In this document: piece by piece, positions 7,183 through 31,326 of the stretch
How positions within the stretch are numbered: the first letter of the stretch is position 1
How the letters are laid out: the number at the start of each line of letters is the position of its first letter
Assembly (NCBI GenBank): GCA_964291285.2
Contig: OZ219787.1
Location: 704,001 to 768,000 of the forward strand
Reading direction: 5' to 3'
DNA length: 64,000 nucleotides
From: Alphaproteobacteria bacterium
GTDB lineage: Bacteria > Pseudomonadota > Alphaproteobacteria > Bin95
Program-made: the position numbers and the translations under genes
Notes under the pieces: generated by a model
Seen by the model: the letters and a program-made list of their open reading frames with translations, nothing else
Told to the model about the DNA's origin: nothing
Database searches by the model: none

Positions 7183-7579
<397 letters not shown>

Positions 7580-7626: not shown

Positions 7627-9048
7627 ATGTCGCTCAACTGCAAGACGCCCGAGGATGTGCTCAAGGCAATCCAGGACAATGATGTCCGCCATGTGGACCT
7701 GCGCTTCACCGACCCGCGCGGCAAGTGGCAGCATACCGCCCAGTATGTGACGACCATGGACGAGGATGTCTTCGTGGACGGCATCTTCTTCGACGGCTCC
7801 TCCATCGCCGGCTGGAAGGACATCAACGAGTCCGACATGATCCTGATGCCGGACCCGACCACGGCCACCATGGACCCGTTCATGGCGGAAAATACGATGG
7901 TGCTGTTCTGCGACGTGCATGAGCCGTCCACCGGCATGTCCTATGAGCGCTGCCCGCGCTCGGTCGCCAAGAAGGCCGAGGCCTATATCCAGGAAGCGGG
8001 TATCGGCGACACGGCTTATTTCGGCCCGGAAGCCGAGTTCTTCGTGTTCGACGACGTGCGCTTCGATGTGTCGATGAACCGGACCTTCTACATGCTCGAC
8101 AGCGCGGAAGGGCCCTACAACTCGGGCACGGAGTTCGAGGAGGGCAATCCCGGCCACCGGCCGGACGTGAAGGGCGGCTACTTCCCGGTCCCGCCCGTCG
8201 ACAGCGGCGCGGACATGCGCTCCGAAATGGTCTCGACCATGGCCGAGATGGGCCTCGACATGGAGAAGCACCATCACGAGGTGGCGCCCTCCCAGCATGA
8301 GCTCGGCCTCAAGTTCGGCACCCTGGTCGGGGCCGCCGACGCGTTGCAGATCTACAAATATGTGACCCACATGGTCGCGCACAGCTACGGCAAGACGGCG
8401 ACCTTCATGCCGAAGCCGGTGATCGACGACAACGGCTCCGGCATGCATGTCCACCAGTCGGTCTGGAAGGACGGCCAGCCGCTCTTCGCCGGCCACGGCT
8501 ATGCCGACCTCTCGGAGTTCGCGCTGCACTATATCGGCGGCATCATCCGGCACGCGAAGGCCATCAACGCCTTCTCCAACCCGCTCACCAACTCCTACAA
8601 GCGGCTGATCCCGGGCTTCGAGGCGCCGGTGCTGCTCGCCTATTCGAGCCGCAACCGCTCGGCCTCCTGCCGCATCCCCTATGTGGCGAGCCCGAACGGC
8701 AAGCGCGTCGAGGTGCGCTTCCCGGATCCGGGCGCGAACCCCTATCTGGCCTTTGCGGCCATGCTGATGGCGGGCATCGACGGGGTCATCAACAAGATCC
8801 ATCCGGGCGAGCCGATGGACAAGAACCTCTACGACCTGCCGCCGGAGGAGCTGGAAGGCGTGCCGACGGTCTGCGGGTCGCTGCGCGAGGCGCTGGAAAG
8901 CCTGGACGCCGACCGCTCGTTCCTCACGCGCGGCGACGTGTTCTCCGACGACCTGATCGACGGCTATATCGACCTCAAGTGGGGTGAGGTCTACGCCCTC
9001 GAGCACACGCCGCACCCGGTCGAGTTCAAGATGTATTACAGCGTCTGA
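7627..9048 (+). CDS. glnA: Glutamine synthetase type I
   Basis: [49 protein letters not shown] and [10 protein letters not shown] motifs. Confidence 0.98.
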
Positions 9049-14757: not shown

Positions 14758-16603
14758 CATCGGCGCGGTTTCCGCCGGTCCCTCCGCGGGACGGGGTGGA
14801 CGGAGCCGGCGGCTCTCGCTTTCCTGGCTTCTGGCGCTCAGTTTCGGCTCGCTGATCGCGGTCTCGATCCTCGTGGTGCTCGGCTTCGCCGTCTATGGCG
14901 CGGCCCGCAACACGGTGGACCTGTTGCGCGACCGGGCCGACCTCGGGATCGGGGCGCTGACCCGGGAGGTCGAGGGCCTGCTCGAATCGGCGGGCAACCA
15001 GGCCGGTTTCGTGGCGCGGGCGCTGGAGACCGGCCAGGCCGACCCCGGGAACCCGGAGCAGTTGACGGCGCTGCTGTTCGGCGCCATGGCCGCCGATCCC
15101 GCCATCGGCGCTCTCGCCTTTATGGGGGCCGACGGGCGGACGCTCATAGCCGAGAGAACGGAGACCTTGGCGAAGATACGGACTCCGGACTTCTCCAAGG
15201 ACCGGGCGGCGCAGGCCGCGCTCCGCTACGGCCGGGCGAACCGGAAGCCCGTCTGGGTGCCGCCGATCTACCGGCCGGACTACGATTCGTCCGTCCTTAC
15301 CCTCCAGATTCCCATCTACAGGAACGACCGGTTCGAGGGCATGCTGGCGGCGGTGCTGGGCATGAGGGCGCTGTCCGAGTTCCTCGAGCAACTGAGCACC
15401 GGCAGCGCGCCGAACACCTTCGTCCTCTACGGCAAGGACCGGGTACTGGCCCACCGCCTGATGGCGGCGGGCTATCCGGACCTGTCGCTGGAGAAACCGT
15501 TGCCCGAGCTTGCCGGGTTCGGAGACCCGGTGCTGGCCCGCATGTGGGACGAACACTGGATGCGAAGGTCCGGCATCCCACCGCGCCCGCCGCTGCAAAG
15601 CCATCTGGTGGAACTGGCGGGGACGCAGTACCTGTTCCTTTACCGCCAGCTCGACTCCTATACCGCGACGCCGCTCATCCTGGGGGCCTATTTCGATACC
15701 GACGTCATCAGCAGCGAGATAAACCGCCTGCTCAATTCCATGATCGTCGGCTTCGCTGCCCTGGTGCTTGCGGTCCTGCTGGCGCTGTTCATCGGCCGGC
15801 GTCTCTCGCGCCCCGTGCGGCGCCTGTCCTCGGTCGCGCGCCTGATCGGCGAACTCCGGCTGGACGATATCCGCGACCTGCCGGCGAGCCGGGTGCGCGA
15901 GCTCGACGAGCAGTCGAACGCCTTCAACTCGATGACGGGCGCGCTGCGCTGGTTCCAGGCCTATGTGCCGCGCTCGCTGGTCCATCAGCTCATGCGGGAA
16001 GGCGACCTCGCCTCGCTCGCTTCCGACCGGCGCAATGTCACCGTGATGTTCAGCGATATCGCCGGCTACTCGACGATCTCGGAAGGCAAGAGCGCGGCGG
16101 AAGTCGCGGACCTGCTGAACCGCCATTTCGACATACTGACCAGCGCCATCGAGGCGGAAGGCGGCACAGTGGACAAGTTCATCGGCGACAGCGTGATGGC
16201 CTTCTGGGGCGCGCCGGAGAAGCAGAAGAACCGCGCCGTCCGCGCCTGCCGGGCGGCGCTCGCCATCCGGGACGGCATCGCCGCCGACAACCGCGAGCGC
16301 GAAGCCCGCGGCGAGCCGCCCGTCCGCGTGCGCCTCGGCATCCATTCCGGGCAGGCGACCGCGGGCAATATCGGCACGCCCAGCCGGGTCAACTACACGG
16401 TCATCGGCGACGATGTGAACATCGCGCAGCGGCTGGAGCAGCTCGGCAAGGAGGTGTCGCCCGACGCCGGGGTCGCCATCACCGTTAGCGCCTCGACGGT
16501 GGCCGACCTGGACGGGCTGTTCGAGGTGGAGCCGGTCGGCGAGATGGAGGTCAAGGGCCGCGCCGCGCCCGTCGCCGTCTACCGGCTTGTCGGCACGGCA
16601 TAG
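14741..16603 (+). CDS. Membrane adenylate/guanylate cyclase (sensor-HAMP-cyclase)
   Basis: Two TM segments, HAMP-like linker, MFSDIAG, DKFIGD and YTVIGDDVNIAQRLE motifs. Confidence 0.92.
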   Translation: MPRPGDIGAVSAGPSAGRGGRSRRLSLSWLLALSFGSLIAVSILVVLGFAVYGAARNTVDLLRDRADLGIGALTREVEGLLESAGNQAGFVARALETGQADPGNPEQLTALLFGAMAADPAIGALAFMGADGRTLIAERTETLAKIRTPDFSKDRAAQAALRYGRANRKPVWVPPIYRPDYDSSVLTLQIPIYRNDRFEGMLAAVLGMRALSEFLEQLSTGSAPNTFVLYGKDRVLAHRLMAAGYPDLSLEKPLPELAGFGDPVLARMWDEHWMRRSGIPPRPPLQSHLVELAGTQYLFLYRQLDSYTATPLILGAYFDTDVISSEINRLLNSMIVGFAALVLAVLLALFIGRRLSRPVRRLSSVARLIGELRLDDIRDLPASRVRELDEQSNAFNSMTGALRWFQAYVPRSLVHQLMREGDLASLASDRRNVTVMFSDIAGYSTISEGKSAAEVADLLNRHFDILTSAIEAEGGTVDKFIGDSVMAFWGAPEKQKNRAVRACRAALAIRDGIAADNREREARGEPPVRVRLGIHSGQATAGNIGTPSRVNYTVIGDDVNIAQRLEQLGKEVSPDAGVAITVSASTVADLDGLFEVEPVGEMEVKGRAAPVAVYRLVGTA

Positions 16604-16678
16604 CGGCTATCGCTTCCCTCGCCCTGCAATCGCTGCGATAAAGTCCCGACGACGGATGAAGGACAGGGAACGGAACCC

Positions 16679-16849
16679 ATGCCCGACGATCTTGCGGATA
16701 TCCGCAGCCATATCGGCAACCGGCACTCGGATGCCGATGTCGCGACGGCGGCTCCCGTGCTGCTGTTCCAGAAGACGCTCGGGCGCCGCGACCTGGAGCC
16801 GGAGGACGGCGCGGCGATCCCGCCCGGCTGGCACATGCTCCTGTCCTAG
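16679..16849 (+). pseudogene. 5' fragment of MaoC/FAS1-like dehydratase, truncated at the element junction
   Basis: MPDDLADIRSHIGNRHSDADVATAAPV...GAAIPPGWHML then LS-stop; resembles the N-terminus of mesaconyl-C4-CoA hydratase-like proteins (LPPGWH); not in the ORF track. Confidence 0.7.
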
Positions 16850-16889
16850 CCACCACACCCGGCAGGCAATCAGCCTTTGGAGCCGGAGA

Positions 16890-16918
16890 ATTGTGCTTGG
16901 CTAGCTTCATACAGTCAA
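16890..16918 (-). promoter_or_regulatory. Outward-facing sigma70-like promoter at the element left end
   Basis: TTGACT-N17-CACAAT on the minus strand. Confidence 0.5.
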
Positions 16919-16923
16919 GGGTT

Positions 16924-17035
16924 TAAAGAAAGCGGGCAGCGGAAGGCGAATTCCGCTGCCCGATCTTAGCCCGAAAATCGGACTGTAGCCTCAGTCCCCA
17001 CAAGCGCGTCAGGAACCTTCCGAAGCCATCATCAA
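16924..17035 (-). ncRNA. Candidate counter-transcribed RNA upstream of repC
   Basis: Minus-strand TTGACT(17065-70)-N17-TACCTT(17042-47), then a perfect 12-bp stem 16933-44/16951-62 with a U-rich tail; same layout as repABC ctRNAs. Confidence 0.55.
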
Positions 17036-17128
17036 GCTCGGAAGGTAACCCCCCCGGTCTGCCTAGTCAAGCCGGGAAAGCGAAAAAAGTGGGGATCGAG
17101 GCATGGACGACGCCGAGCGTCAAAAATC

Positions 17129-18832
17129 ATGCAAGATCAAGGCACTACAGACCGCCTCAGAGGCGGCGACACCCCGCACGGCCCCTACCCAACAGGGTGC
17201 CGAATCCACAAACCCGAATACGACGCGGCTCGAGATGCCGCCGAGGCCTGGACCGGCCGGGAAGGCGGACTCGACCATTGGGCTCTTCTTGCTCTCCTCC
17301 AGGAGAACCAGCGCGTCAGGGAGCGCTTCGGCTTGAGGTCTCTCCACGTCGATTATCTCCGCGTGTCGTTCAAGAAGCTGCGCCGGGACGACTTCGAGCC
17401 GGGCGACTGCCCTCCCAGCGTCTGGATGAGCAAACGCAAGCTTGCCAGGAAACTGGGCGTCAGCCTGAGAACCGTCTCCAACATCGAGAAGGATCTCGCC
17501 CGGGCCGGTCTCCTCTACTGGAGCGACACGGCCAGCCGGCGCCGCGACGGCAAGCGCAGCAAGCAGGACAGCCGCATCAAATGGGCCCATGGCGTGACCT
17601 TCGCCCCTTTCGCCGCCAACGCCCAGGAAATCGAGGACGCAGCGAGCCAGGCTGAGGAGGAGGACATCGAAGGCGAGGGCCTGGTCCACGAGATCGCCAC
17701 AATCCGCTGCCATACCCGCATCATTCTAAAGGCAGCGCTTCGCTTCGACGAGGCGTCCGCAGCCGTGCTCCAGCCGCTTCTTGCCCGTGTCCTGGCGCTT
17801 CCGGACGCGAAGGGCATGGGCGGTTCCGACATCCACAGCCTCCGCTCCCTTGCGGTTGAGGCGCGGCATATCAAGAAGCAGGCCCGCGCGCTCACGGAAC
17901 CGGCCCTGGATGCCGTCAAACTGCCGACCGTGGAGGAGGTCGAGCCCCCTGAGTCGGCTTCGCCGGAACACCGGAAAGATGCTGAAATTTTCACCCTGGG
18001 GTACCCTCCGACGACAGGGTCCAATTCAATTACACACCAATTCCAAGAGAACACTCTTGTAGCGGCAGACCCACCGGCAGCGCCTTCCCCGCCCCCACCG
18101 AAACCGCCTGCCGCCCGCCTTTCGCCGGAAGGGGGAACCGGTAGTCCTGCGATCCTCGGCCGGTCGCCGGTCTCCGGAGGGCCGCCGGCGTGGCTCATCC
18201 TAGACTCCCTGAGCCCCCGTCTGGGCCGCTTCCTCCCGCCCGGCCGGCCTCCCACGGCCGACGATTTCTTCGAGGCCGCCAACATGACTCGCAGCGAGCT
18301 CGGGATATCCCCCGAAGCCTGGCGCGAGGCCTGCACCGCCCTGTCGCCCGCCTGGGCACTCATGGCGGTCGTCATCGTCGCCTCGCGGCACGATGTCGGC
18401 GAAATCCACACCAGCGCCGGCGGCTATTTCCGGAAGCTGATGGAGCGGGCCCGGCAGGGAACTCTCAACCTTGCCGGCTCGTTGTGGGGCGTGATCGAGC
18501 GCAGCGAGCAACTTCACGTCGCCCGGGTCGCGCCCGCAACAGAAGGAGAACCTTCCATCCCCGGTCCGGACCCGGGCCTTCAATCCTTGCCGTTGCGGGT
18601 CGGCGGGCGGCAGGCCGACCAGGCCACCATGGCAGCCATGTGCCGGACCGCCGCGGACCCGCAAGCCCTTCTCCTCGCCTGGAGCGAGCTGGTCGCCCGA
18701 TACCGCTGCTGGCCGTATCTCGATGAAGTCGAGCGCCTCTACGAACAACTCCTTGCGCCGCAAGCAACCGTCCGCGCCGGGCGGGACAACCGCCGCGCAG
18801 TCGAAAGCGACCCGGAGCCGCACCATGCCTGA
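17129..18832 (+). CDS. repC: Plasmid replication initiator RepC-like
   Basis: N-domain DDFEPG..PSVWMS..LARKLGVSLRTV..LARAGLL..SD..HGVTFAPF; C-domain LGISPEAWREAC...SAGGYFRKL..RARQGTLNLAGSL. Confidence 0.85.
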   Translation: MQDQGTTDRLRGGDTPHGPYPTGCRIHKPEYDAARDAAEAWTGREGGLDHWALLALLQENQRVRERFGLRSLHVDYLRVSFKKLRRDDFEPGDCPPSVWMSKRKLARKLGVSLRTVSNIEKDLARAGLLYWSDTASRRRDGKRSKQDSRIKWAHGVTFAPFAANAQEIEDAASQAEEEDIEGEGLVHEIATIRCHTRIILKAALRFDEASAAVLQPLLARVLALPDAKGMGGSDIHSLRSLAVEARHIKKQARALTEPALDAVKLPTVEEVEPPESASPEHRKDAEIFTLGYPPTTGSNSITHQFQENTLVAADPPAAPSPPPPKPPAARLSPEGGTGSPAILGRSPVSGGPPAWLILDSLSPRLGRFLPPGRPPTADDFFEAANMTRSELGISPEAWREACTALSPAWALMAVVIVASRHDVGEIHTSAGGYFRKLMERARQGTLNLAGSLWGVIERSEQLHVARVAPATEGEPSIPGPDPGLQSLPLRVGGRQADQATMAAMCRTAADPQALLLAWSELVARYRCWPYLDEVERLYEQLLAPQATVRAGRDNRRAVESDPEPHHA

Positions 18833-19643
18833 CCTCTCCAACGGACTGCCGAACAACACCGATCCCCGGGAACTTATCCGGCTCCTGCGGCGCCCCGGCG
18901 TGGCCGCGCGCATGGGACTGCACGGCAACCCCGAAGGGCCGATACGCCTTCTGGAATACTGGATCGGCGGTGTCGACGAGAAGGAATGGCTCGTGGGCGG
19001 TCGTCCCATATCGAGGGTCACGCCGCAGCAGGCCATGAACGATCTGGGACTGAGCAAAGCCGAGTTTCAGGACTACGCGCGACGGCTCCGCAAGATCGGC
19101 GCCTTCGCTCCGGTCGGATTCGATCTCGACGAAGACTCCGGGGTCTTCGATACCCCGCTCCTGGCGGCATCTCCCGCAACAGTCGACGATCTCCCATCCG
19201 TACCGGTTCGGGGACCCGACCGCATGCCTCCCTCAATCAGGGAAGCGCTCGCGCTGGTCGAGAAGATCGAAGCCATGACCGAAGCCGAGCGGAACGCGCT
19301 TTCGTCGGCAGAGAAGGACCTTTGGCTGGCCGCCACCGCAGTCAGCCGCATGCCCGTGCCCCTCGCACGGTTCATGCCGCCACTCGGAGCGCTGGACTGC
19401 GACACCGTGATCGCGGCCACGAAACAGGCCTTGCCCGAGTTCCGGATGTCGCCGCGCGCCTGGAAGGACTTCTGCCGCCAACTGCCCGAATTCCACGCGG
19501 TTATCGCCGTATGCATCGTGGTCGGAGAAATCCTCGACCACCCCGGGCCGGTCCCGGAGGACCTGCCCGACAAGATCCTCAGGCAGCTTTCGACCCAAGA
19601 AAGCACGACCTCCTTCTTCAACTCCCGTAAGCACAAGAGCTGA
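18825..19643 (+). CDS. Second, compact and divergent RepC-like protein
   Basis: KEWLVGGRPI..LGLS and FRMSPRAWKDFC..HAVIAVCIVV echo both RepC domains; overlaps the repC stop. Confidence 0.55.
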   Translation: MPDLSNGLPNNTDPRELIRLLRRPGVAARMGLHGNPEGPIRLLEYWIGGVDEKEWLVGGRPISRVTPQQAMNDLGLSKAEFQDYARRLRKIGAFAPVGFDLDEDSGVFDTPLLAASPATVDDLPSVPVRGPDRMPPSIREALALVEKIEAMTEAERNALSSAEKDLWLAATAVSRMPVPLARFMPPLGALDCDTVIAATKQALPEFRMSPRAWKDFCRQLPEFHAVIAVCIVVGEILDHPGPVPEDLPDKILRQLSTQESTTSFFNSRKHKS

Positions 19644-19649
19644 CCAAGC

Positions 19650-20309
19650 ATGAGCGAACCAGACATCTACGCCGTCATCAGCCAGAAGGGCGGGTCCGGC
19701 AAAACCACGATTTCCACGAACCTCGCCGTCGAGGCCTGTCTGGCCGGAAAGAGGGCGATGATCGTGGACACGGACCCCCAGGGGTCCTCCGGGACCTGGA
19801 GCGATATTCGCGACAAGCCCTTCCCCGAGGTCATCACGACGCAGCCGAGCCGGTTGCCCAGGGAGATCGGGCGAGCTGCCGAGAGCGGCTTCGAGGTCAT
19901 CGTCCTCGACACCCCCGGGCACACCGACATGTCGATGCTGACCGCGGCCCAGCACGCCCGCCTGGTCATCATCCCGTGCCGGCCGCAGGTGTTCGACCTC
20001 GCGTCGATCCGGATGAGCCTCGACGTCTGCCGCATGGCGCAGACTCCCGCAGTCATCGTCTTCTCCGCAGCACCTACACGCGGGCACAGGCCCATCGGCT
20101 CTGCGAGAGATCTTCTGGCCCACGAGGACGTTCCGATCCTGCCGGCGATGCTTCGTCAGCGGACCGCTTTCGCTCACGCATCCTCCTACGGTCTGGGAGT
20201 GAGCGAGTTCGCACCGCGCTGCCCCGCAGCGGTCGAGGCACAAGCGCTCGCCGCTGCCGTCTTCGCCTGGCCCGAACCCGCGCTCACTGTCGTTTCGGCC
20301 GCATCCTGA
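19650..20309 (+). CDS. parA: ParA-family ATPase (short, type Ib-like)
   Basis: SQKGGSGKTT, VDTDPQGS and LDTPG motifs. Confidence 0.93.
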   Translation: MSEPDIYAVISQKGGSGKTTISTNLAVEACLAGKRAMIVDTDPQGSSGTWSDIRDKPFPEVITTQPSRLPREIGRAAESGFEVIVLDTPGHTDMSMLTAAQHARLVIIPCRPQVFDLASIRMSLDVCRMAQTPAVIVFSAAPTRGHRPIGSARDLLAHEDVPILPAMLRQRTAFAHASSYGLGVSEFAPRCPAAVEAQALAAAVFAWPEPALTVVSAAS

Positions 20310-20327
20310 TCCCACCGGAGACCTTTC

Positions 20328-21311
20328 ATGAGCCGCGATACCAAGCTCGACAAGAAACTGGAGCGGGCCATGGCCACCGCCCCCAAGGGTCTAGCAGAGG
20401 CCGAAATCCCGAACGCCGTTCAACACCGGCGGTCCCTGCCGACGCCGCTCGACATGATCGAAGTCGAAGACCGGCTTCGAGCCGTCGACGAGGCCGCCGT
20501 CGAGCACATCGCGGAGTCCATGGAGCAGCGAGGGCAGATCTACCCGATCCAGATCACCACGATCGAGCCAGGCCAGTTCCGCCTGGTCAACGGCGCCCAT
20601 CGGATCGCCGCAGCCCGGAAGCTTGGCTGGACGCATATCGAGGCGTTCCTGGTCGATGGTCTGGAGGAGGAAGAGGTCCGGCTTCTGGAAATCGACGAGA
20701 ACCTGTGCCGGGCCGAACTCAATGCGATCGACAAGGCCCACTTCTTTGCCAAGCGCAAGGAGATCTACCTGCGCCTGTATCCGGAAACTCGGAACGGGGG
20801 AGACCGCAAGAGCTTGGAATACCGAAATAATATCAGATGGCCGAATCGGCCAACTGATCCCGGCAGCCCAAACTTGCCTGCGAGCCGTCCACGACCGTAT
20901 GCGGAGGATACCGCAGCTTCGACACCGTGGTCCCCCCGCGTCATTCGACGCTACACCCGTATTGGTGAGCGCCTCGACCCCGCGCTCCGCGAGGCTCTTG
21001 CGGCTACCCCAATCGGCCGTCGTACGCGAGACCTCGAGACCATCGCCGACATGAAGCCGGACAAGCAACAGGACGTGCTGCAGCGGCTGCAAACCGCGCA
21101 ACAGCCTCCGACGTCCCTGTCGGCTCTCATGGCGGACCCCTACCGGCCGTCCTCTCCCCGAAAGACGAACCTGGACCGGCTGACCGCGCTCTGGTCGGAG
21201 ACCTCCGCGAGCCACCGGCGCCAATTCCTCGAATATCTCTGCAACGAAGCTTCCGAAGCCGAACGCGACGAGCTCCGTAAAGCACTCACCAACCAGGGAG
21301 ACTCCTCATGA
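20328..21311 (+). CDS. ParB N-terminal-domain protein 1
   Basis: LVNGAHR, EIDENLCRAEL, YPETRNGGDRKS and HTH-like region. Confidence 0.88.
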   Translation: MSRDTKLDKKLERAMATAPKGLAEAEIPNAVQHRRSLPTPLDMIEVEDRLRAVDEAAVEHIAESMEQRGQIYPIQITTIEPGQFRLVNGAHRIAAARKLGWTHIEAFLVDGLEEEEVRLLEIDENLCRAELNAIDKAHFFAKRKEIYLRLYPETRNGGDRKSLEYRNNIRWPNRPTDPGSPNLPASRPRPYAEDTAASTPWSPRVIRRYTRIGERLDPALREALAATPIGRRTRDLETIADMKPDKQQDVLQRLQTAQQPPTSLSALMADPYRPSSPRKTNLDRLTALWSETSASHRRQFLEYLCNEASEAERDELRKALTNQGDSS

Positions 21312-21586
21312 CCACCCTTGCCGAAATTGACGCACGCATTCACCAGCCGGGCCTGACCGTGCTGGACCAGGTCGAGCTGCTGATGCAGCGCAAGCGCGCC
21401 TACTACGCCCATTCCCCCACGATAACCCCTCACGAGCTGATCGAGGCCGTGGACAACCGTCCTGATCTGCAGCCTCTCGACGGCGCCCTGCTCCTGCGGC
21501 TGATGCGAAACGCATGCCGCGGCACCCTGACGTCCGCCGAGCTGGAAGAAATCCTCGACGAGCTCGAACGGGCAGAGAAAGACTGA
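21308..21586 (+). CDS. Small ParB-fragment-like protein
   Basis: Coupled at both ends (ATGA, TGATG); LAEIDARIHQPGLTVLDQVELLMQRKRAYY aligns by eye with LLEIDENLMRAELNPLDRGVFLARRKEIYE of its neighbour. Confidence 0.6.
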   Translation: MTTLAEIDARIHQPGLTVLDQVELLMQRKRAYYAHSPTITPHELIEAVDNRPDLQPLDGALLLRLMRNACRGTLTSAELEEILDELERAEKD

Positions 21587-22488
21587 TGGACGCCCCGGCT
21601 GCCACCCCCGTCGTCATGCGGGAGGAGCCGCGCCAGACGGTCCTCCTGGAGCTGGACCGCATCGATCTCGGCCAGCGTCTCCGGACGATAAACGGCGGCA
21701 CCGTCCAGCACCTTGCGGAAAGCATGAAGATCCACGGTCTCCAGTATCCGATCCAGGTGCGCATGGACGGCGACCGCTATGCGCTGGTCTCCGGCGCTCA
21801 CCGGCTTCAAGCCGCGCGCCACCTCGCCTGGCCGCATATCGAGGCTTTCGTCCTCGACCTGCTCGACGAGGACACGCTGGCGCTGCTGGAGATCGACGAG
21901 AACCTGATGCGCGCCGAGCTCAACCCGCTCGACCGCGGCGTCTTCCTCGCGCGGCGCAAGGAGATCTACGAGCGGCTCTATCCGGAGACCCGGCGCGGCG
22001 GCGACCGGCGAAGCTCCGCCTACCAGGGCCAGAACGACGACGGCTCACACCGCGGCTTCGTCGCGGAGACCGCGTCCTTCACGCCGTTCTCTCCCTGGAC
22101 GATCCGCCGGGCGCTGCGCATCGGAGAGAAGATCGCCCCCGAGCTCCGCGAAGAGATCGCCATGACGGCCATCGCCTACCGAGAAGGTGACCTCTTCACC
22201 ATTTCCGGAATGGACAGTGAAGAGCAGGACCGCCTTCTGGAGGACCTCCAGAGCGCCGAACAGGAAGTCCAGGCGCTGTCCGACGTGCATCCGCGAAGAG
22301 AGCCCACCGAAAACCCGAACCCGGCGCCTGACCCGTCCTCCAACGACGAGCCGGCGCCGGAAAAGACGACGCTCGAGCGCCTGCAGACGCTATGGATCGC
22401 AGCCAGCGAGGATGAACAGGCGCAGTTCATGGCCTGGCTCGAACACATGACCGGGCAGGGCAGCGCCGAGCAGCCCGCGGCGTGCTGA
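21586..22488 (+). CDS. ParB N-terminal-domain protein 2
   Basis: LVSGAHR, EIDENLMRAEL and YPETRRGGDRRS; clear paralog of 20328..21311. Confidence 0.88.
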   Translation: MDAPAATPVVMREEPRQTVLLELDRIDLGQRLRTINGGTVQHLAESMKIHGLQYPIQVRMDGDRYALVSGAHRLQAARHLAWPHIEAFVLDLLDEDTLALLEIDENLMRAELNPLDRGVFLARRKEIYERLYPETRRGGDRRSSAYQGQNDDGSHRGFVAETASFTPFSPWTIRRALRIGEKIAPELREEIAMTAIAYREGDLFTISGMDSEEQDRLLEDLQSAEQEVQALSDVHPRREPTENPNPAPDPSSNDEPAPEKTTLERLQTLWIAASEDEQAQFMAWLEHMTGQGSAEQPAAC

Positions 22489-22604
22489 CAGACGCACACC
22501 GGCCAGGCAGATCCATGTATTCACCCCTTGCATCCGCAGCCGCGACGCGCTATGGTCCCTTCCTGATCGAGGCGCCCTCCAGGTCCGCTGCGGACGCCGA
22601 AAAA

Positions 22605-22679
22605 ATCAAAGTAGGTAAAACCCTCACTTTGATTTTCTGGCCCCGACCCGATCAAAGTTGGTACAACCCTCACTTTGAT
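22605..22679. repeat. Two 29-bp palindromes ATCAAAGT-N13-ACTTTGAT (candidate parS/operator)
   Basis: Units at 22605-22633 and 22651-22679, 46-bp period, similar spacers, AT-rich, just after the parB genes. Confidence 0.8.
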
Positions 22680-22828
22680 TTTTCCCGCGCGGGACGCGCC
22701 GGCCTTCCGGTATTGGAGACGCGCCTGTTCCGTTTTTGTGCTCGCCGATGCCGCCTGCCCGGGGCAGGATCCGGACACAACGACTTCACACGCAGGCCGT
22801 TCCCGGTGCGCTCATGGCCCGGGTCAGT

Positions 22829-23089
22829 TCACGTCAGCACGCGAAGCGCCGCCTCCGGCGCCTTGTCAAGCACCCGCAGCAGGGCGCGCGCTGCCCCGGT
22901 CGGGCAGCGCTTCCCCTGCTCCCAATTCCGGATCGTTTCCAGCGACACGTCGATGCGCCGCGCAAGTTCCGTCTGGCTAAGGCCCATCCGGCGCCGGACC
23001 CGGCGTGTGTAGCGTGCCATGTCCTGCAACGCTTCAGCCTCGTCTTCCCGCTCCTGCGCCGCAATCTCCGCTTCCGTGGTTCCGTCCAC
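22829..23089 (-). CDS. XRE/HigA-like helix-turn-helix regulator
   Basis: RRRMGLSQTELARRIDVSLETIRNWEQGKR.PTGAARALLRVL; frame stays open further upstream (IDPDDPSTFPEGRID), start uncertain. Confidence 0.85.
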   Translation of the reverse strand: MDGTTEAEIAAQEREDEAEALQDMARYTRRVRRRMGLSQTELARRIDVSLETIRNWEQGKRCPTGAARALLRVLDKAPEAALRVLT

Positions 23090-23195
23090 CCTGGCCGGAT
23101 CGATCCGCCCTTCGGGGAATGTGGATGGATCGTCGGGATCGATCCTGATGCACGTTGCGCTGACAGCCCGCGACCTCCCTGGGGTTCTTCCAGCG

Positions 23196-23774
23196 TCAGG
23201 GCCAGAGCGCGCCCAGCGGGAAGGTCACTGCCTCGAAGGGCGGAAAGCGTACCGGCTCGTCTTCCTGCGCAGCGCCCGTCGGCGTCCAGGCACCGTCCTT
23301 CAGCACGAATGCCTCCAGCGTCCTGGCCGCCGGATCGACGAACCAGAGGTGACGGACACCCTCCCGCGCATAGACCGGGCGCTTTTCTTCAAGATCGAAC
23401 GTCCGCGTCGAAGGGGAAAGAATCTCGCACACCCAGTCAGGCGCCAGGGTGATGTAGGCCTCGTCAGGCGGTTCGGGCATCCGCTCCCGCCGCCAGCCGG
23501 CAAGATCGGGCACCAGGACGTCCTCGCCGAAATGGAGCTCGGGCTCGTCGACGATCCACCATCCGCCAGGACCGCCACGCCCCCTCTGGAACGGGCCGCC
23601 GATTTCGATACCGAGCGAGGAACCGGCTATGGCGTGACGAAAGGCCGGCCTCGGCTGCATATGCAGGGCGCCTTCGACGATCTCCGCGACCATATGCGCC
23701 GGCGCGTCCAATACGTCCTGGTAGTTGGCCCTGCGGGCCGGACCGCGCCGTCGCAACGCCCCCTGGGCATTCAT
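23196..23774 (-). CDS. Uma2-family endonuclease-like protein
   Basis: AEIVEGAL..PRP..H, LVPDLAGW, APDWVCEILSPST and YAREGV.HLWFVDP motifs. Confidence 0.92.
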   Translation of the reverse strand: MNAQGALRRRGPARRANYQDVLDAPAHMVAEIVEGALHMQPRPAFRHAIAGSSLGIEIGGPFQRGRGGPGGWWIVDEPELHFGEDVLVPDLAGWRRERMPEPPDEAYITLAPDWVCEILSPSTRTFDLEEKRPVYAREGVRHLWFVDPAARTLEAFVLKDGAWTPTGAAQEDEPVRFPPFEAVTFPLGALWP

Positions 23775-24067
23775 GCCATCAACTCCGGTGGTGAGCGCCG
23801 ACCCCATGCTACGCCCGCATCGCCCGCCTGTCACGGTCACCACGATATCGCTGCGGCGTTCCGGGCCGGGCATTCATCCCCTCGGCCGGGAAGCTCTTCA
23901 AGCCCGGGCATTCCCTGTTTTCGCCAGCATTCCCACTCCCGACCGAAAGGGGAAGCGGACCGACACGCTACCTGGCATGACGTCAACGAACAGGCACCCA
24001 TGAACACGGAAACCGGCAGGCAGCCCTGCCCGCCACCACTCTCACGCCCTCCCAACAGGTACACCAG

Positions 24068-24550
24068 ATGTCCCGCAGCTTACCCCTCCCGGAATCCCCC
24101 GACTTCCCGTCGCGCTTCCGCCGCCTTACCGCCCTGCAGCAGGCACAGGCCCTTGCCCAGGGTAAACGCCGTCACGAACGCAAATACGGGACACCGCCCC
24201 GCGGCGGCGATCGCCAGTCCGCAGCGTTTCGTGCACTTCGAGAACAAGAGGGCCATCGGCCCGATTACTCCCGTCCCGACCGGTGCGGCTTCACCAACTT
24301 CGTCGCCTGGCGTCTCGGATGCACTCCACGATCCATCCAGATCGCCGTGCGAATGGCCGAACGGATCCCCACGCCGCTGCAGGCCGCGCTCGCCAAAACC
24401 GCCATTGGGAACCGGAAGAAGGACCTGGTCCGGATCACCGCCATGAGCCCGCGACAACACACCGACCTTCTCCAGAGGCTGAAGGACGGACCGGTAGCCC
24501 TCACGCTCGACGAGGCTCTCGCATCACCGAAAAGCGCCGAAGCAGCATGA
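24068..24550 (+). CDS. ParB-derived protein lacking the N-terminal domain
   Basis: LTALQQA..KRRHERKYG..RGGDRQS..LGCTPRSIQ.AVRMAERI..LQAALAKTAIG..KDL aligns with the middle of both ParB paralogs. Confidence 0.7.
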   Translation: MSRSLPLPESPDFPSRFRRLTALQQAQALAQGKRRHERKYGTPPRGGDRQSAAFRALREQEGHRPDYSRPDRCGFTNFVAWRLGCTPRSIQIAVRMAERIPTPLQAALAKTAIGNRKKDLVRITAMSPRQHTDLLQRLKDGPVALTLDEALASPKSAEAA

Positions 24551-25119
24551 CCGTAACCACCCGCCTCACACCAGGGCCCCCACCAACGATGAACACGCCG
24601 GACCCCGTCGACATTCTGATTGCCGATGGCGTCGACCACGCATTCCGCCAGCTTTCGCTCGCGCTTGAACAGCGCGTCCCCGCGCTCCTGATCGCCATGC
24701 CCGGCGAAAGCACCCGCCGATGCTGGCAGATAGCCTCTGGCTGGGCCCAGGCAATCGGCGCTTCCTCCCATGACATCGACATTCCCACTCTTGGCGGCGT
24801 TGAGGCCTTGAAGGAAGCGGAACGCCAGGTCCCGGACAACCAGGTCCTCATTCTCAGCCGGCTGCACCTTGCCGAAGACAACGAGCGCGACGCCGCGTCG
24901 CGCCTTGCCAGCGGGCGCGCAATGCGCGGCGCCCCCGTCGTTCTCTCCGGTCGCCGCGACCTCACGGGCGCCTGGACAAGCGAAAGGGACGATTTCGTTC
25001 CCACCATCCGACACGCCTCCGATGACGACGATCCACGCTTCCCGGCCCCTACCGAACTCGTCCTGCCACCCGGCCCCCGGCCTGGCAGCGCTCCCCCGGA
25101 AGAGGAAGCGACATCATGA
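24547..25119 (+). CDS. Hypothetical protein, possibly a degenerate AAA/ExeA-like fold
   Basis: ATGA-coupled; LLIAMPGESTRR, VLILSRLHL and PVVLSGRRDL sit where Walker A, Walker B and sensor motifs would be. Confidence 0.5.
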   Translation: MTVTTRLTPGPPPTMNTPDPVDILIADGVDHAFRQLSLALEQRVPALLIAMPGESTRRCWQIASGWAQAIGASSHDIDIPTLGGVEALKEAERQVPDNQVLILSRLHLAEDNERDAASRLASGRAMRGAPVVLSGRRDLTGAWTSERDDFVPTIRHASDDDDPRFPAPTELVLPPGPRPGSAPPEEEATS

Positions 25120-25304
25120 GGTTCATAGCCCCGCCGAAGGAACCCCCACCGCCCGTGAGCGAGCTCCTCCTCGAGCTCATCAACGCATACCCCTTCATCT
25201 TCTACCCGACCCTTGTCATCGTCTTCCTGGCGGCCGCCGCGTTCGCGCTCACATTGCTCGACCAACGCCGCCGGCGCCGGGCCCAAGCGCGCGCCGATGG
25301 CTGA
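25116..25304 (+). CDS. Small single-TM membrane protein
   Basis: Coupled to neighbours; one hydrophobic helix followed by an Arg run. Confidence 0.55.
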   Translation: MRFIAPPKEPPPPVSELLLELINAYPFIFYPTLVIVFLAAAAFALTLLDQRRRRRAQARADG

Positions 25305-25482
25305 CAAGACCCGGATCGAGCGGTCGGACGCGACCTGGAACGCCGGCGCGGATGCACTCGACGGACCGCACTGGTGGATCGAGGAGAACCTCTGCTCCGT
25401 TTGCGCCACGAAGATGCAGGCCGCAGCAGACCCCGCCTATGCGGGCCTCTATGCCGACGACGGTCCGCCGGAACTTCCGTGA
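25297..25482 (+). CDS. Hypothetical protein with CxxC
   Basis: Overlapping start; MADKTRIERS...CSVC. Confidence 0.45.
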   Translation: MADKTRIERSDATWNAGADALDGPHWWIEENLCSVCATKMQAAADPAYAGLYADDGPPELP

Positions 25483-26636
25483 CCGGAAATCACCCGAACC
25501 CAGGAGTTTGAGGGAAGCCTCTTCGAGGCGAACCGAACAGACGGAGGCTATCATGGACGCCGCGACACTGCCGGACACCGACGAGCTCCTCCCGCCCGTC
25601 GCCCACACCATCTGGGACATGAAATACCGCTTCAAGGAGCGGGACGGCACGCCGATCGACCGGACGATGAACGACACCCGCCTGCGCGTTGCCCGGGCGT
25701 TGGCCGCGAACGACACCGAAGTGGAGATGTTCACCGACGGCATGCGCGGCTGGAAATTCCTCCCGGCCGGCCGGATCCTCGCCGGCGCCGGCACCGACCG
25801 GCAGGTCACCCTCATCAACTGCTTCGTGCTGGGCCAGATCGACGACAGCCTCTCCGGCATCCTGGACGGACTGAAGGACGCGGCCACCACCATGCAGGCC
25901 GGAGGCGGCATCGGCCACGACTTCTCGACGCTGCGTCCGAAAGGCGCACCGGTGCAACGCGTCGGCGCCGATGCCTCGGGCCCGCTGTCCTTCATGAACA
26001 TGTGGGACTCGATGTGCCGGACAATCATGAGCGCCGGCAGCCGCAGGGGCGCGATGATGGGGACGATGCGCGTCGACCATCCCGACATCGAGGACTTCAT
26101 CGACGCCAAGCGCGAGGCTGACCGCCTGCGCATGTTCAACCTCTCCGTGCTGGTCACCGACCAGTTCATGGACGCGGTCAGGAAAGACGGACCGCACGCG
26201 CTCTTCTTCGGCGGCCAGGTCTATCGCACCGTCCGGGCCCGCGACCTCTGGGACCGCATCATGCGCGCGACCTATCCCGACTTCCGCAACTCGGCTTGAG
26301 AATCGACTGATTTGACGGTTTTCCGGCGCGAGAAGTGTCGGATTTCGGTGCAGTACCTCTCGGGACCGGCTTGTAGTGCCGACCTACCCCCTTGATCGGG
26401 CTGGCGAAGATCCGGACGCTGCGCTGATGTTCGTGCGCTGCAAGAGACGCTTCAAGGACGGCAAGGAGCACCGCTACTGGAGCGTTGTGGAGAACGTCCG
26501 GGTCCACGGCGGTCGGGTTGTTCAGCGTCAGGTGCTCTATCTCGGGGAGATCAACGACAGCCAGCGAGCGGCGTGGTGCCGCTCGATCGAGGTGGTGGAG
26601 GGCAAGTCGCGATCACGGCAGATGGCGCTGTTTCCC

Positions 26637-28088
26637 GGTCGTGTCCCCAGGGGTGGTGTAGGAGCTGAAGCTTCCGGTGGTAGCTGTGGGTAAGTGGCCC
26701 GCCGCCGCGACCGTCTGGAGTCAGGCGGCGGCGGGCCACTTACCCACAGCGGAGGCCATCGCGGTGCCGGTTAGGGTTGGGCTGTCACAGTCCACCTGAC
26801 CGGAGGAGTACCACGATGACCACCACCGACATGATGACCCTGCGGGCGCTGTTGGAGAAGAGTTCCGACGCCGACCTGCTTCGCGAGATGATCGGGTTCA
26901 CGGCCGCGCGTCTGATGGCGCTTGAGGTTGAGGGCCTTGCGGGCGCCGCGCACGGCGAGCGCTCGCCGGACCGGATCACGCAGCGCAACGGCTACCGGGA
27001 CCGGGTCTGGGAGACGCGGGCCGGCACGGTCGAACTGAAGATCCCGAAGCTGCGCAAGGGGAGCTACTTCCCGGGCTTCCTTGAACCGCGGCGGATGGCG
27101 GAGAAGGCGCTGACGGCGGTGATCCAGGAGGCCTACATCAAGGGCGTATCGACCCGCTCGGTGGACGACCTGGTGCAGGCGATGGGCATGTCGGGCATCT
27201 CCAAGAGCCAGGTGTCGCGGCTGTGCGGCGAGATCGACGACAAGATCCGCGACTTCCTCGACCGGCCGCTGGAGGGCGACTGGCCGTATCTCTGGCTTGA
27301 CGCGACCTATGTGAAGATGCGCGAGGCCGGGCGCGTCGTCTCGGTCGCGGTCACCATCGCGGTGGCGGTCAACGATCAGGGCCGGCGCGAGGTGCTCGGC
27401 ATGGCGATCGGCGCGTCCGAGGCCGAGACCTTCTGGACCGACTTCCTGCGCTCGCTCGCCCGCCGCGGCCTGCGCGGCGTCAAGCTGGTGATCTCCGACG
27501 ACCACAAGGGCCTGAAGGCCGCCGCCACCCGCATCTTCGGCGCCACCTGGCAGAGATGCCGCGTCCACTTCATGCGCAACCTGCTCGCCCATGCCGGCAA
27601 GCAGGGCCGGCGCGTCGTCTCCGCCTTCGTCACTACCGCCTTCGCCCAGGAGGATGCAGACAGCGCCTCCGCCCAGTGGCGCCAGGTCGCCGACCAGCTC
27701 AGGCCCAAGGCGCCAAAGCTCGCCGCCATCATGGACGAGGCCGAGCACGATGTTCTCGCCTACATGACCTTCCCGGCCGCGCACCGCGCCAAGCTGCACT
27801 CGACAAACCCGCTCGAACGCCTCCACGGCGAGATCAAGCGGCGCACAAACACCGTCGGCATCTTCCCCAACGAGGACGCCATCACCCGGCTGATCGGCGC
27901 AATCCTGCTCGAGCAGAACGATGAATGGGCAGTCCAGAGAGCCAGATACATGACGCTGGAATCCATCGCTCCCGTGAGCGACAATACAACCGTCAAGTTG
28001 CCCGCCGTGGCAGCCTGAGCGTTCCGGCCCTACCCGCCGGACACCGCTACGGACGCCAGGCTCTTACACCACCCGCGGGGGCACGATC
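26637..28088 (+). mobile_element. IS256-family element nested in IS1634
   Basis: Imperfect IRs GGTCGTGTCCCCAGGGGTGGTGTA vs GATCGTGCCCCCGCGGGTGGTGTA; 9-bp duplication CTGTTTCCC (26628-36, 28089-97). Confidence 0.93.
26816..28018 (+). CDS. IS256 transposase
   Basis: [31 protein letters not shown] and STNPLER motifs; appears intact. Confidence 0.96.
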
Positions 28089-31000
28089 CTGTTTCCCGAG
28101 GACCGGGAGGCGCCGGCGCTGACTTGCGAAGTGGTGAAGATCGACCTCTCGCAGGTGGCGCTTCACGACCCGCGCCAGTGGGGGGCGTGCTGGCTGGCGC
28201 TGTCCTTGTGGGACCGCCTGGACCTGGACCGCTTCTGGGAAGAGCGGCTGCCGGCGAGCCGGCAAGGCACGCGGTGGCTGGACATCCTGAAGATCCAGGT
28301 CTGCTACCGGCTGATCGACCCGGGCAGCGAGTGGCGCCTTCACCGTCACTGGTATGAGCACAGCGCGCTTCGCGATCTTCTGGGTGGCGAGCGGGCGATC
28401 GCCGACGACACACTCTATCGCTGTCTCGACAAGCTGCTGGCGCACAAGCAGGGCTTCTTCTCGTTTCTGCGCGACCGCTGGGCGACGCTGTTCGAGGCGC
28501 GCTTCGACGTGCTGCTCTACGACCTGACCTCGACCTACTTCGAGAGCGATCCGCCGTTCGATGACAAGCGCCGCTTCGGCTACAGCCGGGACAAGCGGCC
28601 CGACTGCGTGCAGGTGGTGATCGCCCTGATCGTTACGCCGCAGGGCTTTCCGCTGGCCTATGAGGTGATGCCGGGCAACACCTCCGACGACACCACGCTG
28701 GCGGCGTTCCTCAAGAAGATCGAGGATCAGTATGGCCGCTCCGAGCGGGTGTGGATCATGGACCGCGGCATCCCCACCGAGGAGACGCTGGCCGCGATGC
28801 GCGAGGGCGAGGCGCCGGTGCGCTACCTGGTGGGCACGCCCAAGGGCCGGCTGACGCGGCTCGAGAAGGTGTTCCTGGGCCTGCCCTGGCAGGAGGTGCG
28901 CCAGTCCGTGACTGTCAAGCTTCTGGTCGAGGATGGCGAGCTCTACGTCCTGGTGCGCAGCGAGGGGCGGCAGGTGAAGGAACGCGGCATGCGCCGGCGC
29001 CGGCTGAAGAGGCTGTGGCGTCGATTGGCCGAGTTGCAAGGGCAGTCGAACAGCCGGGATCAGTTGTTGCTCAAGCTCGGCGCCGCCAGGAAGGAGGCCG
29101 GCCGGGCCTGGAGCCTGGTCGACATCACCGTGCCCGGGACCGACAGCGAACTCGCCGCCAACGGCTTCTCATTCCGCCTGCAGCGCGACCGGCTGCGCCA
29201 GGTCCGCCGCCGCGAGGGCCGTTACCTGCTGCGATCCAACATGGTCGCCGAAGACCCCGCCACGCTGTGGCATCTGTACATGCAGCTCGTCGAGATCGAG
29301 CAGGCGTTCAAGGAACTCAAGCACGACCTCGCGATCCGCCCCATCTTCCATCAGCGCCAAGAGCGCATCGAGGCGCATATCTTCGTCTCGTTCATCGCCT
29401 ACTGCCTGCTGGTGACCCTGAAGAACCTCGCCCGGCCGCGCGCCCCGGGCCTCACCCCACGCGCCATCCTTGAGGCCTTCGCCACCATCCAGATGGTGGA
29501 CGTCCATCTGCCAACCACCGACGGCCGGCACCTCGTCCTGCCGCGCCACACCCGGCCGAACAAGGAGCACGAGCTACTGCTGCAACAGCTCGGCATGACC
29601 TGGCCGCAGCAACCCGCACCCCGGATCTCCGCCTGACGGCACACGGCGCCGCCTCTCCGTTCGCCGCCTTGTAGTGCCGACCCTCGGGGAGACGATCAAG
29701 GCTATTCAATGAGTTAGCATCCTCATGACCCCCGAGTTGCGGAAGTCGGGCTATGACTGCGCCGAGCCCGGGGTGATCTTCATCGACCGGATCAACGCCA
29801 CGAACAATCTCCGGCACTGCGAGACGATCTACGCGACCAACCCCTGCGGCGAGCAGCCCCTGCCGGACTGGGGCTCGTGCCTGCTGGGCTCGATCAATCT
29901 GGCCGCCTTCGTCAACGCGCCCTTCGAGGACGGCACCCATATCAACGAAGCCGACCTCGCCTGGACGGTCGCCACGGCCGTCCGGATGCTCGACCGCGTT
30001 GTCGACCGGTCCTTCTATCCCCTCGAGCAGCAACGCGAGGAAGCCTTGTCCAAGCGCCGCCTCGGCCTCGGCATCACCGGCCTGGCCGACGCGCTCGCGT
30101 TCATGGGCATCCGCTACGGCTCGGATCTCGCCGTTGAACGCACCCGGGACCTCGTCTCCATGCTGCAGACGGCCGCATACCGCGCCAGCGCCGTCCTCGC
30201 CGGTGAAACGGAGCCCTATCCCTTATGGGACCTCGAGCGATTCCTGCAGACGGACACCGCGCAGCAGCTCGACGCGCAGACGCTGGACTTCATCCGGAGC
30301 AACGGCCTTCGCAACTCGCACCTCACCTCGGTCGCGCCGACCGGCACCATCTCGCTGATCGCGGGCAATGTTTCCGGCGGGATCGAGCCCGTCTTCGCGC
30401 ACAGCTACACGCGCCGGGTCCTGCAACCGGACGACAGCCACACCGAAGAGCAGGTCCTTTCGGCCTCGATGGCGCTCTGGCGCCGGATGAAGGGCGACGA
30501 GCCGCCTCCGGACCATTTCGTCAACGCCGGCACGATCACACCCAAGGAGCACATCCGGATGCAGGCCGCGGCGCAGGCCCATATCGACAGCGCCGTCTCC
30601 AAGACCGTGAACCTGCCCAGGGACATCTCCTTCGACGACTTCAAGGAAGTCTACCGCCTCGCCTATGTGTCCGGCTGCAAGGGCTGCACCACCTACCGGC
30701 CGAACGACATCACCGGCGCGGTCCTGGTCGCGGACGGCGACAGGCAGGACGGGCCAACCCCGACGATCATGGACCGGCCGCCGGTCCTGGACGGCCAGAC
30801 CCGCAAGGTCAGCTGGCCCGGAAGCGAGCACGCCTTCTACCTGGTCCTGAACCACTCGCAGGATGCGGACGGCACGAAGCGCCCCTTCGAGATCTTCATC
30901 AACACGAAGGACGCCCGCCACCATGCCTGGATCACCGCCATCACGCGGATGATCTCGGCCGTCTGGCGCCGGCAGGGCGATGTCGGCTTCGTTTCCGAGG

Positions 31001-31326
31001 AGCTGATGGCCATAGCGGACCCGAACGACGGCCAGTGGGTCCGGGGCCGCGGCTGGGTTTCCTCCCTGATCGCGCTGATCGGCATGGAGATCCGCGACTG
31101 GATGGTCGAGCTCGGCCATATCGATCCGGACGAGCCCCTGCCGCCGATCAAAGCCGGACCGGCGCCCGGCACCGAACGTCCCGCCGGCCCGGTCTGCCCC
31201 AAGTGCCACCAGCCCGGGATGATCCACCAGGAAGGCTGCGACGTCTGCCCGTCCTGCGGCCATTCGAAGTGCGGCTGACCGCGTCCCCCGACGACGGGCG
31301 GCAGCCCTACAGGAGTTAACGATCCC

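Follow-up and report, generated by a model that had tools for sequence, protein, structure and literature searches.

The DNA analysed here is a stretch of 64,000 nucleotides (positions 704001 to 768000 of contig C3, referred to below as the window) from an alphaproteobacterial genome of 6.1 Mb and 68% G+C that is assembled into five contigs (G000). The window contains a replication/partition module of seven genes, namely repC, a second and shorter repC-like gene (repC'), parA, parB1, a small open reading frame (ORF) of 92 amino acids (aa) termed orf92, parB2 and parB160. The basic Rep-ParA-ParB type of this module is already known, and simple relatives of it exist. The module stands out by the conserved combination of two ParB proteins with fragments of ParB and, in two elements, by the presence of accessory proteins related to the RP-C_C domain.

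Genes of the module and their conservation

The first gene, repC (17129-18832), encodes a RepC-family replication initiator of 567 aa that matches the Pfam families RP-C (65.6 bits) and RP-C_C (73.3 bits) above their respective cut-offs of 24.4 and 32.6 bits; it is the single RP-C match in the whole genome. It is followed by repC' (272 aa, 18825-19643), whose most likely start, as called in the protein collection, lies 8 nt inside the end of repC, and by parA (19650-20309), which encodes a short Walker-type partition ATPase of 219 aa without an N-terminal helix-turn-helix (HTH) that exceeds the cut-offs of Pfam AAA_31 (52.8 bits) and CbiA (44.5 bits). The genes for two full-length ParB proteins, parB1 (20328-21311) and parB2 (300 aa, 21586-22488), enclose orf92 (21308-21586), and parB160 (160 aa, 24068-24550) begins 1.58 kb after the end of parB2. 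All seven ORFs are found on the forward strand at the positions given in an earlier note on this DNA, apart from the starts of repC' and parB2, which we now place at 18825 and at the ATG at 21586. Between repC and parB2, adjacent genes either overlap by 8, 4 or 1 nt or are separated by gaps of 6 and 18 nt, and because of this spacing repC, repC', parA, parB1, orf92 and parB2 are predicted to form one tightly coupled operon.

Related loci were collected by a scan with a ParB profile using one genome per species, which yielded 27 loci that were mapped by tblastn. The earlier note had suggested a search for the same gene order, and eight of the 27 loci (L035-L042), which belong to an uncultured alphaproteobacterial clade, contain RepC-ParA-ParB1-...-ParB2, their common order being RepC-ParA-ParB1-(mini-ParB)-small helix ORF-ParB2-twin 27-nt repeat-ParB160. 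ParB160 follows in seven of the eight (the copy in L036 is broken), and L040 stops at a contig end. The small ORF is present in all nine elements, i.e., the element in G000 and the eight related multi-ParB loci, six of which were taken as the genus genomes G004, G006, G016, G001, G011 and G015. The remaining loci comprise five with a DnaA_N-type Rep, ParA and one ParB, two with RepC, ParA and one ParB (metagenome-assembled genomes of Defluviicoccus), two with ParA and ParB, nine with ParB alone, and one 1.5-kb fragment with mini-ParB and ParB2. In the literature, with subscription journals outside the coverage, a search for multi-ParB operons and truncated natural ParB paralogues returned no account of such an operon.

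Selective constraint was assessed from dN/dS ratios calculated by the Nei-Gojobori method, pairwise between orthologues. ParA is the most conserved gene in the module (0.07-0.22) and, together with ParB1 (0.19-0.30), ParB2 (0.04-0.32) and ParB160 (0.09-0.23), is under purifying selection in the elements of this clade; the ratio for RepC is 0.39. For the same genome pair dS is unequal between adjacent genes, and the module is therefore a recombination mosaic.

The locus is not a repABC locus. It resembles repABC of Rhizobium etli p42d in its initiator with RP-C and RP-C_C domains, in an A+T-rich core within repC, in the partition genes encoded in an operon and, possibly, in a small antisense RNA near the repC leader. 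However, repC comes first here, as opposed to the canonical order repA-repB-repC in which it is last; the ParA of 219 aa is not a RepA (45.6 bits against a cut-off of 348.45 for TIGR03453), RepA being a long type Ia ParA of ~400 aa; the ParB proteins are not RepB (46.4 and 36 bits against a cut-off of 201.5 for TIGR03454); RepC' and the ParB-derived genes are additional; and the locus is chromosomal, inside an element with a serine recombinase. Also close are the simple RepC-ParA-ParB modules (L047 and L051, the Defluviicoccus genomes mentioned above) and the DnaA_N-Rep-ParA-ParB module of a four-copy element described below. In these, too, Rep is followed by ParA and ParB, the two partition proteins belong to the same families at 37-48% identity, and they have the same backbone of DUF5131, SNase and serine recombinase genes downstream, but have a single ParB and lack the small helix ORF, the ParB consisting of a DNA-binding domain only and the twin repeat.

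Full-length ParB proteins and their fragments

ParABS systems usually comprise one ATPase, one ParB and one site. The paralogy of the ParB proteins noticed earlier was confirmed by BLASTP and by profile-profile comparison: ParB1 and ParB2 share 44% identity across an alignment of 287 aa (E = 2e-69), and their profile matches Noc, Spo0J and ParB chains with a best E of 1.9e-15. ParB1 has an N-domain (ParB_N 28.1 bits, cut-off 26.3), an HTH domain and a C-terminal region, and matches phrog_3264 end to end (E = 1.2e-49); the corresponding values for ParB2 are 31.3 bits and E = 6e-49. The HTH of ParB2 is near-invariant between elements, whereas the recognition helix of ParB1 varies. In the alignment, ParB1 alone among the paralogues carries a long Lys-rich, basic N-terminal peptide that ParB2 lacks. 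Basic N-terminal ParB peptides of this kind activate ParA. In box II, the CTP-binding motif that reads GERR in canonical ParB proteins, ParB1 and ParB2 both have GAHR, invariant in 17 of 17 sequences, and box III, ENLxR, is retained.

The earlier note had read orf92, by eye, as a doubled copy of a ParB helix. Pairwise, orf92 matches ParB1 and ParB2 weakly (E = 0.006 and 0.019). A profile of its nine orthologues (58-96 aa) aligns in hhalign with residues 98-135 of ParB2, i.e., the segment 'LLEIDENLxRAELxxLDRxxFLxxRKEIY', with a probability of 93.6% and E = 2.1e-7, and judging from the profiles the small ORF is a derivative of the 'EIDENL...RKEIY' segment of ParB, which spans box III and the linker helix. 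The first half of orf92 matches the second half (E = 1.3e-5, probability 81%), which supports internal doubling; the second half alone found no match when compared with ParB (E = 0.13).

Reading the interval between parB1 and parB2 at each related locus showed two forms of the small ORF, one with a single helix (58-60 aa; G011, G015, G016 with 60 aa, and L041) and one with a doubled helix (83-96 aa; G000, G004, G006, G001 and L036). They share the start consensus M-T-(T/A)-L-x-(E/D)-I-D...P-G-L-x-x-L-D-R-A-x-L-L-x-x-R-K, the start codon in G011 being uncertain (GTG or CTG). The stop codon overlaps the ATG of parB2 in each element (TGATG or TAATG); in G000 the two codons share one base, and the start of orf92 overlaps parB1 by 4 nt (ATGA). 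Full-length relatives of orf92 within the genus are 95% (G004), 86% (G006) and 49% (G001) identical, and matches at E <= 0.01 are found in 7 of 17 genus genomes, G000 counted.

Two further fragments lack the N-domain. The first, mini-ParB (141-205 aa), sits between parB1 and the small ORF in five of the nine elements, with dN/dS of 0.38-0.57. It is missing in G000, where ParB1 ends in ...LTNQGDSS. This end resembles the end of mini-ParB in G004 and G006 (...LTNQGDCS) and not that of their ParB1 (...AEPDTQP), and for this reason G000 most likely lost mini-ParB through a deletion between homologous 3' ends. The second is ParB160, which the earlier note correctly described as a ParB without the N-domain. 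It aligns with residues 144-255 of ParB1 (E = 1e-10) and 149-246 of ParB2 (E = 2e-13) at 32-33% identity, and because only the middle of the full-length proteins is covered, the N-domain is absent, as is the C-terminal region; what is left is the linker helix, a GGDR segment and the HTH. Its predicted structure has a pLDDT of 83.9, and the 17 best rows of VIA-align consist without exception of ParB-family DNA-binding domains (Z 5.6-7.3, 95-106 residues), values that are middling by the tool's own note (Z below 8) although the rows are homogeneous. Among 1.84 billion sequences, ParB160 matches 46 cluster representatives at E <= 0.001, mostly full-length ParB proteins matched internally and a handful of short ones without the N-domain. 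A complex prediction for ParB1, ParB2 and orf92 returned a score of 0.00, i.e., no answer, and is counted neither for nor against an interaction. A fifth ParB-related gene of 737 aa lies further downstream in the window (37136-39349; weak ParB_N, 19.7 bits, and HTH_ParB, 23.1 bits), and ORFs of 890-1169 aa with ParB_N occur elsewhere in G000.

The plasticity of this region raises the question of whether the short ORFs are functionless leftovers of tandem duplication and deletion. The content between parB1 and parB2 is variable, with mini-ParB in only some elements, internally deleted in G004 and G006 and apparently removed from G000 by the end-fusing deletion; some genes in L036 are broken; and dN/dS of orf92 in three close pairs, which differ by few changes, is 0.41, 0.96 and 1.52. 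However, the small ORF is kept in frame in all nine elements, at amino-acid identities as low as 28% and with its overlap with parB2 preserved, and dN/dS is 0.47-0.63 for orf92 in the divergent comparisons with G001, beside the values given above for mini-ParB and ParB160. Decay fits poorly with the universal presence of the small ORF and the low ratios of ParB160, and we consider it very unlikely as a general explanation. The objections that the earlier note had raised, namely truncated ORFs that are not conserved or evolve neutrally, or an absence of ParB/RepC similarity in profile searches, are not borne out; orf92 shows weak constraint.

RepC' and the non-coding elements

The relationship between RepC' and RepC also held up. 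RepC' is 36% identical to residues 365-431 of RepC in BLASTP (E = 3e-7), and hhalign aligns it with residues 357-432 (E = 3.6e-6, probability 87.5%); a Pfam scan of RepC' leaves this shared RP-C_C region undetected. The likeness is confined to the C-terminal, RP-C_C-like domain, and the N-terminal half of RepC' is a separate helical, HTH-like domain. A hidden Markov model of this N-domain matches, with E of 1.6e-7 to 4.3e-5, ORFs of ~200 aa that immediately precede the DnaA_N-type rep gene of sibling elements (L043, 2714-3313; L046, 4096-4683; L061, 2901-3500), which look like a recurring Rep-accessory protein; its matches to the winged-HTH (wHTH) region of two RepC proteins are weak (E = 0.003-0.005). 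RepC' is rare, with nine relatives among 5.8 billion proteins. Its orthologue in G016 is 71% identical, and the dN/dS of RepC' is 0.37. The predicted structure is uninformative (pLDDT 64.4, no Foldseek match at E <= 0.001), the Atlas look-up gave HTH_36-type leads only (129-152 shared features), and in a plasmid collection the protein search with RepC' returned 0 matches and the DNA search with the module 2 short ones.

In G016 (L012, G016:C1 7430-12082, reverse strand) repC' and parA are separated by three additional genes. They encode proteins of 673 aa (RP-C_C 56.8 bits), 374 aa (assigned to no family) and 303 aa (RP-C_C, where 30.9 bits falls a little short of the cut-off), and the array of RP-C_C paralogues is thus bigger in G016 than in the window.

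The non-coding leader of repC (16860-17128, ~270 nt) retains 77% mean column identity across five genomes while RepC falls to 28% identity. It contains three hairpins and a terminator-like hairpin on the reverse strand (16962-16933), and RNAalifold predicts 72 base pairs, 7 of them with compensatory changes. A scan of positions 16400-24800 against Rfam at E <= 1 gave one chance-level match to a long non-coding RNA and none to a ctRNA family; the leader is possibly an antisense RNA or a leader control region. A promoter-like TTGACT-17-CACAAT on the reverse strand (16918-16890), at the left end of the element, points outward at a truncated chromosomal gene.

In the center of repC, positions 17980-18059 are 53% A+T, compared with a repC mean of 33%, and form the second most A+T-rich 80-nt window in the module; all 7 repC genes that were looked at have such a peak at their center. 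A study of p42d (PMC3155836) places the replication origin oriV of that plasmid within repC, in an A+T-rich region, and finds RepC to be cis-acting, with incompatibility determined by its final 39 residues. By comparison, the A+T core seen here is a candidate oriV. GC skew placed no origin.

The most A+T-rich 80 nt in the module coincide with two 32-nt repeats located 3' of parB2 (22605-22636 and 22651-22682, 46 nt apart) with the core TCAAAGTWGGTAMAACCCTCACTTTGA. Allowing up to one substitution, the core has three matches in the genome, two here and one elsewhere with a different spacer, so that the pair is unique. A pair spaced 45-46 nt apart follows parB2 in six of the eight related loci; L040 ends earlier and in L041 the pair is degenerate. 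The stems that could be drawn in L041 lack covariation, and conservation is equal in the loop and in the arms, for which reason we infer that the repeats are protein sites and not hairpins, i.e., a candidate centromere or operator. A palindrome scan for a classical parS of 14-18 bp found none that is repeated or conserved. Covariation between the repeats and an HTH was tried as a means of naming the binder, and the diverged repeat in L041, accompanied by an unchanged ParB2 HTH, left the binder unassignable. Upstream of the repeats, a promoter-like TTGCAT-17 nt-TATGGT (22528-22556, forward strand) was read by eye on the alignment and is kept in four genomes, although it is missing from the output of the consensus scan.

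Between the twin repeats and parB160, the window contains an inserted cassette on the reverse strand (22829-23873), consisting of genes for an Xre/MqsA-like HTH protein (22829-23089) and a Uma2-family endonuclease (23196-23873), assigned by Pfam and, for Uma2, by PADLOC (PDC-S03, E = 4.4e-16). The cassette occupies this place in G000, G004 and G016 and is absent between parB2 and parB160 in L036, L039, L041 and L042, while L037 has it elsewhere; we regard it as not ancestral to the module. At least five further Uma2 copies occur in G000, and two GGATCGATCC palindromes between the two cassette genes (23094-23148) are possibly the operator of the HTH protein.

The position of the repeats also bears on the possibility that the ParB proteins are regulators comparable to KorB or VirB, or establishment ('leading-region') proteins, of a conjugative element, with ParB2 and ParB160 repressing or de-silencing genes of the element from the twin repeats and the small protein acting in the manner of KorA. 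In L037, L039 and L042 the repeats lie 150-300 nt upstream of parB160, behind TTGCAT-17-TATGGT and thus in a promoter-like region, and ParB160 is a DNA-binding domain only. The phrog_3264 family is also found in phages, with a relative in Pannonibacter encoded next to the transposase genes of a Mu-like prophage, and the island carries cargo of the establishment or anti-restriction type (SNase, DUF5131, RadC, a methylase, a Strawberry-notch (Sno)-like helicase and the 737-aa ParB-like protein). KorB of the IncP plasmid RK2 is a ParB-family CTPase partnered by the small KorA, with regulatory and partition roles. Here too a ParB-family protein is combined with a short accessory protein, and the model of ParB160 aligns to the DNA-binding domain of KorB (Z 6.2); the small proteins are, however, ParB fragments and not an unrelated HTH repressor. 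Streptomyces SCP1 and F-like pED208 resemble the element in having more than one ParB-type gene per mobile replicon. In pED208, ParA, ParB1 and ParB2 are reportedly transferred to recipients and the ParB proteins are leading-region proteins (PMC8406263), while SCP1 is reported to carry a pair of complete ParABS systems with separate ParA proteins, in contrast to one ParA, two ParB proteins and fragments in one operon here. Against an exclusively regulatory role stand the dedicated ParA in the same operon, which is the most conserved gene of the module, the basic N-terminal peptide of the ParA-activating type retained in ParB1, and the plain Rep-ParA-ParB order of the single-ParB relatives. On balance, we consider this alternative unlikely.

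The integrated element and the role of the module

The left terminus of the element lies at 16838-16859, where a chromosomal gene is cut after ...GGCACATGCT; the terminal inverted repeat CCTAGCCACCACACC is mirrored at the other junction (G000:C2:1049075-1049088). Relatives without the island have a single gene after the cyclase gene. In G000 the first ~60 codons of that gene extend to position 16849 of the window and the rest continues at C2:1049083, i.e., the halves lie at 720.85 kb of C3 and 1049.08 kb of C2. Both junctions have ATGCT followed by the inward inverted GGTGTGGTGG(C)TAGG, and in the whole genome the motif GGTGTGGTGG(N)TAGG is confined to this pair of junctions. A large serine recombinase, the likely integrase, is encoded at 34509-36098 on the forward strand (Pfam Resolvase 75.8 bits, Recombinase 86.9 bits). 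Short-read contigs from three runs of one study span the junction between chromosome and element without differences; joints seen in contigs were disregarded, their sides being only 21-22 letters long, and no RNA run is listed among those that contain the sequence. The chromosomal dnaA lies on C2, a Spo0J-type ParB on C1, and the contig ends fall within long repeats, which is why the contigs look like pieces of a chromosome and not like separate replicons. On its right-hand side the element could not be traced, the junction being on another contig beside insertion sequence (IS) copies and housekeeping genes; the cargo of the island includes many IS copies.

A repeat of at least 22 kb, present in G000 in four copies that are 94-99.9% identical (C5:7.9-30 kb, containing L014/L015; C3:1898-1918 kb; C2:455-476 kb; C2:1-14 kb), is an integrative and conjugative element (ICE)-like sibling of the element studied here, and contig ends lie within the repeat. 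It encodes a DnaA_N-type Rep (467 aa), ParA, ParB, a NikA-like protein, DUF5131, SNase, a large serine recombinase and Toprim, with a type IV coupling protein (T4CP) ~38 kb from parA, and its ParA and ParB are 46% and 39-40% identical to those of the studied element. In G011 a T4CP gene is located ~41 kb downstream of the multi-ParB module. The element studied here was probably once conjugative.

The coexistence of such siblings in one genome raises the possibility of a role for the extra copies in incompatibility or anti-interference, where truncated ParB proteins and RepC' would titrate, block or shield against the partition and initiation proteins of sibling elements. Apart from the four sibling copies, this proposal draws on the variable recognition helix of ParB1 next to the constant helix of ParB2, on the incompatibility attributed to the RepC C-terminus in the p42d account cited above, and on the N-domain that RepC' has in common with the ~200-aa proteins of DnaA_N-type siblings. 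We think it improbable.

The split target gene, the inverted repeat found only at the junctions, the serine recombinase, and the location of dnaA and the Spo0J-type ParB on other contigs argue for an integrated state. We consider it fairly probable, although well short of certain, that a plasmid-like, ICE-related integrative element of the serine-recombinase type resides in the chromosome and that the block, which lies at its left end, is its replication/partition (maintenance) module. The expanded module proposed in the earlier note is thus retained as regards the extra paralogues, but as the maintenance module of an integrated, IS-ridden element and not as a plasmid replicon of the repABC type.

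The mechanism that we propose for this maintenance module, in which truncated paralogues would be modulators as the earlier note had supposed, is deduced from sequence throughout. After excision, RepC would fire the origin inside its own gene, and RepC', with its wHTH-like N-domain and RP-C_C-like C-domain, would tune or insulate RepC via the RepC C-terminal domain, to which incompatibility is attributed in RepC of repABC replicons. ParA would segregate the element together with ParB1, its presumed partner, and no other paralogue has the long basic peptide at the N-terminus. ParB2 and ParB160 would bind the twin repeats and regulate, and the small helix protein, as a mimic of box III and the linker helix, would act on the ParB N-domain or linker. 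A more specific version, which we put forward tentatively and regard as doubtful, is that the ParB fragments (the helix mimic of 58-96 aa coupled to parB2, the ParB without N-domain and the ParB consisting of the DNA-binding domain only) have been co-opted to regulate a partition complex with two ParB proteins, in which the helix mimic would gate the nucleotide-dependent engagement of the ParB1 and ParB2 N-domains and ParB160 would occupy or cap the loading sites, so that control of clamp loading and spreading is built in.

Several observations weigh against the module being a working maintenance system of this kind. Neither RepC (109.4 bits against a cut-off of 150 for NF040974, RepABC_RepC) nor ParA (156.4 bits against 180 for NF041546) reaches the cut-off of its NCBIfam model. 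GAHR in place of GERR in both ParB proteins means that their clamp chemistry may differ from that of canonical CTPase ParB proteins. The putative site has only two copies, both asymmetric, and those of L041 are degenerate yet the ParB2 HTH is unchanged. RepC' occurs in only two of the nine elements (G000 and G016), and the two higher close-pair ratios of orf92 come from few substitutions. The element in G000 is riddled with IS copies and rearranged across contigs, with no T4CP near the window on C3, and L036 has a premature stop in ParB1 and a frameshifted ParB160 (7001-7711 and 9560-10000), from which it follows that the module can decay.

The loading, closure and limitation of ParB clamps are under active study, and two diverged ParB proteins together with three classes of fragments in one operon show ParB naturally divided into its N-domain, linker helix, DNA-binding domain and C-terminus, a dissection that is testable in vitro. 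Similarly, a RepC-type replicon that lives as an integrative element with RP-C_C accessories bears on the coexistence of related mobile elements in one genome.

Downstream of the module, a gene for a class II-like ribonucleotide reductase (24869-31278) is split by transposase genes of the IS256 family (26777-28018) and of an IS4-like type (28131-29636), and a DUF5131-like N-terminal remnant lies near 25290. The Strawberry-notch-like helicase (AAA_34 and Helicase_C_4; 51901-55023 and 59249-60409) is apparently split by an IS21-family insertion, with istB at 55891-56685 and the transposase gene at 56682-58331.

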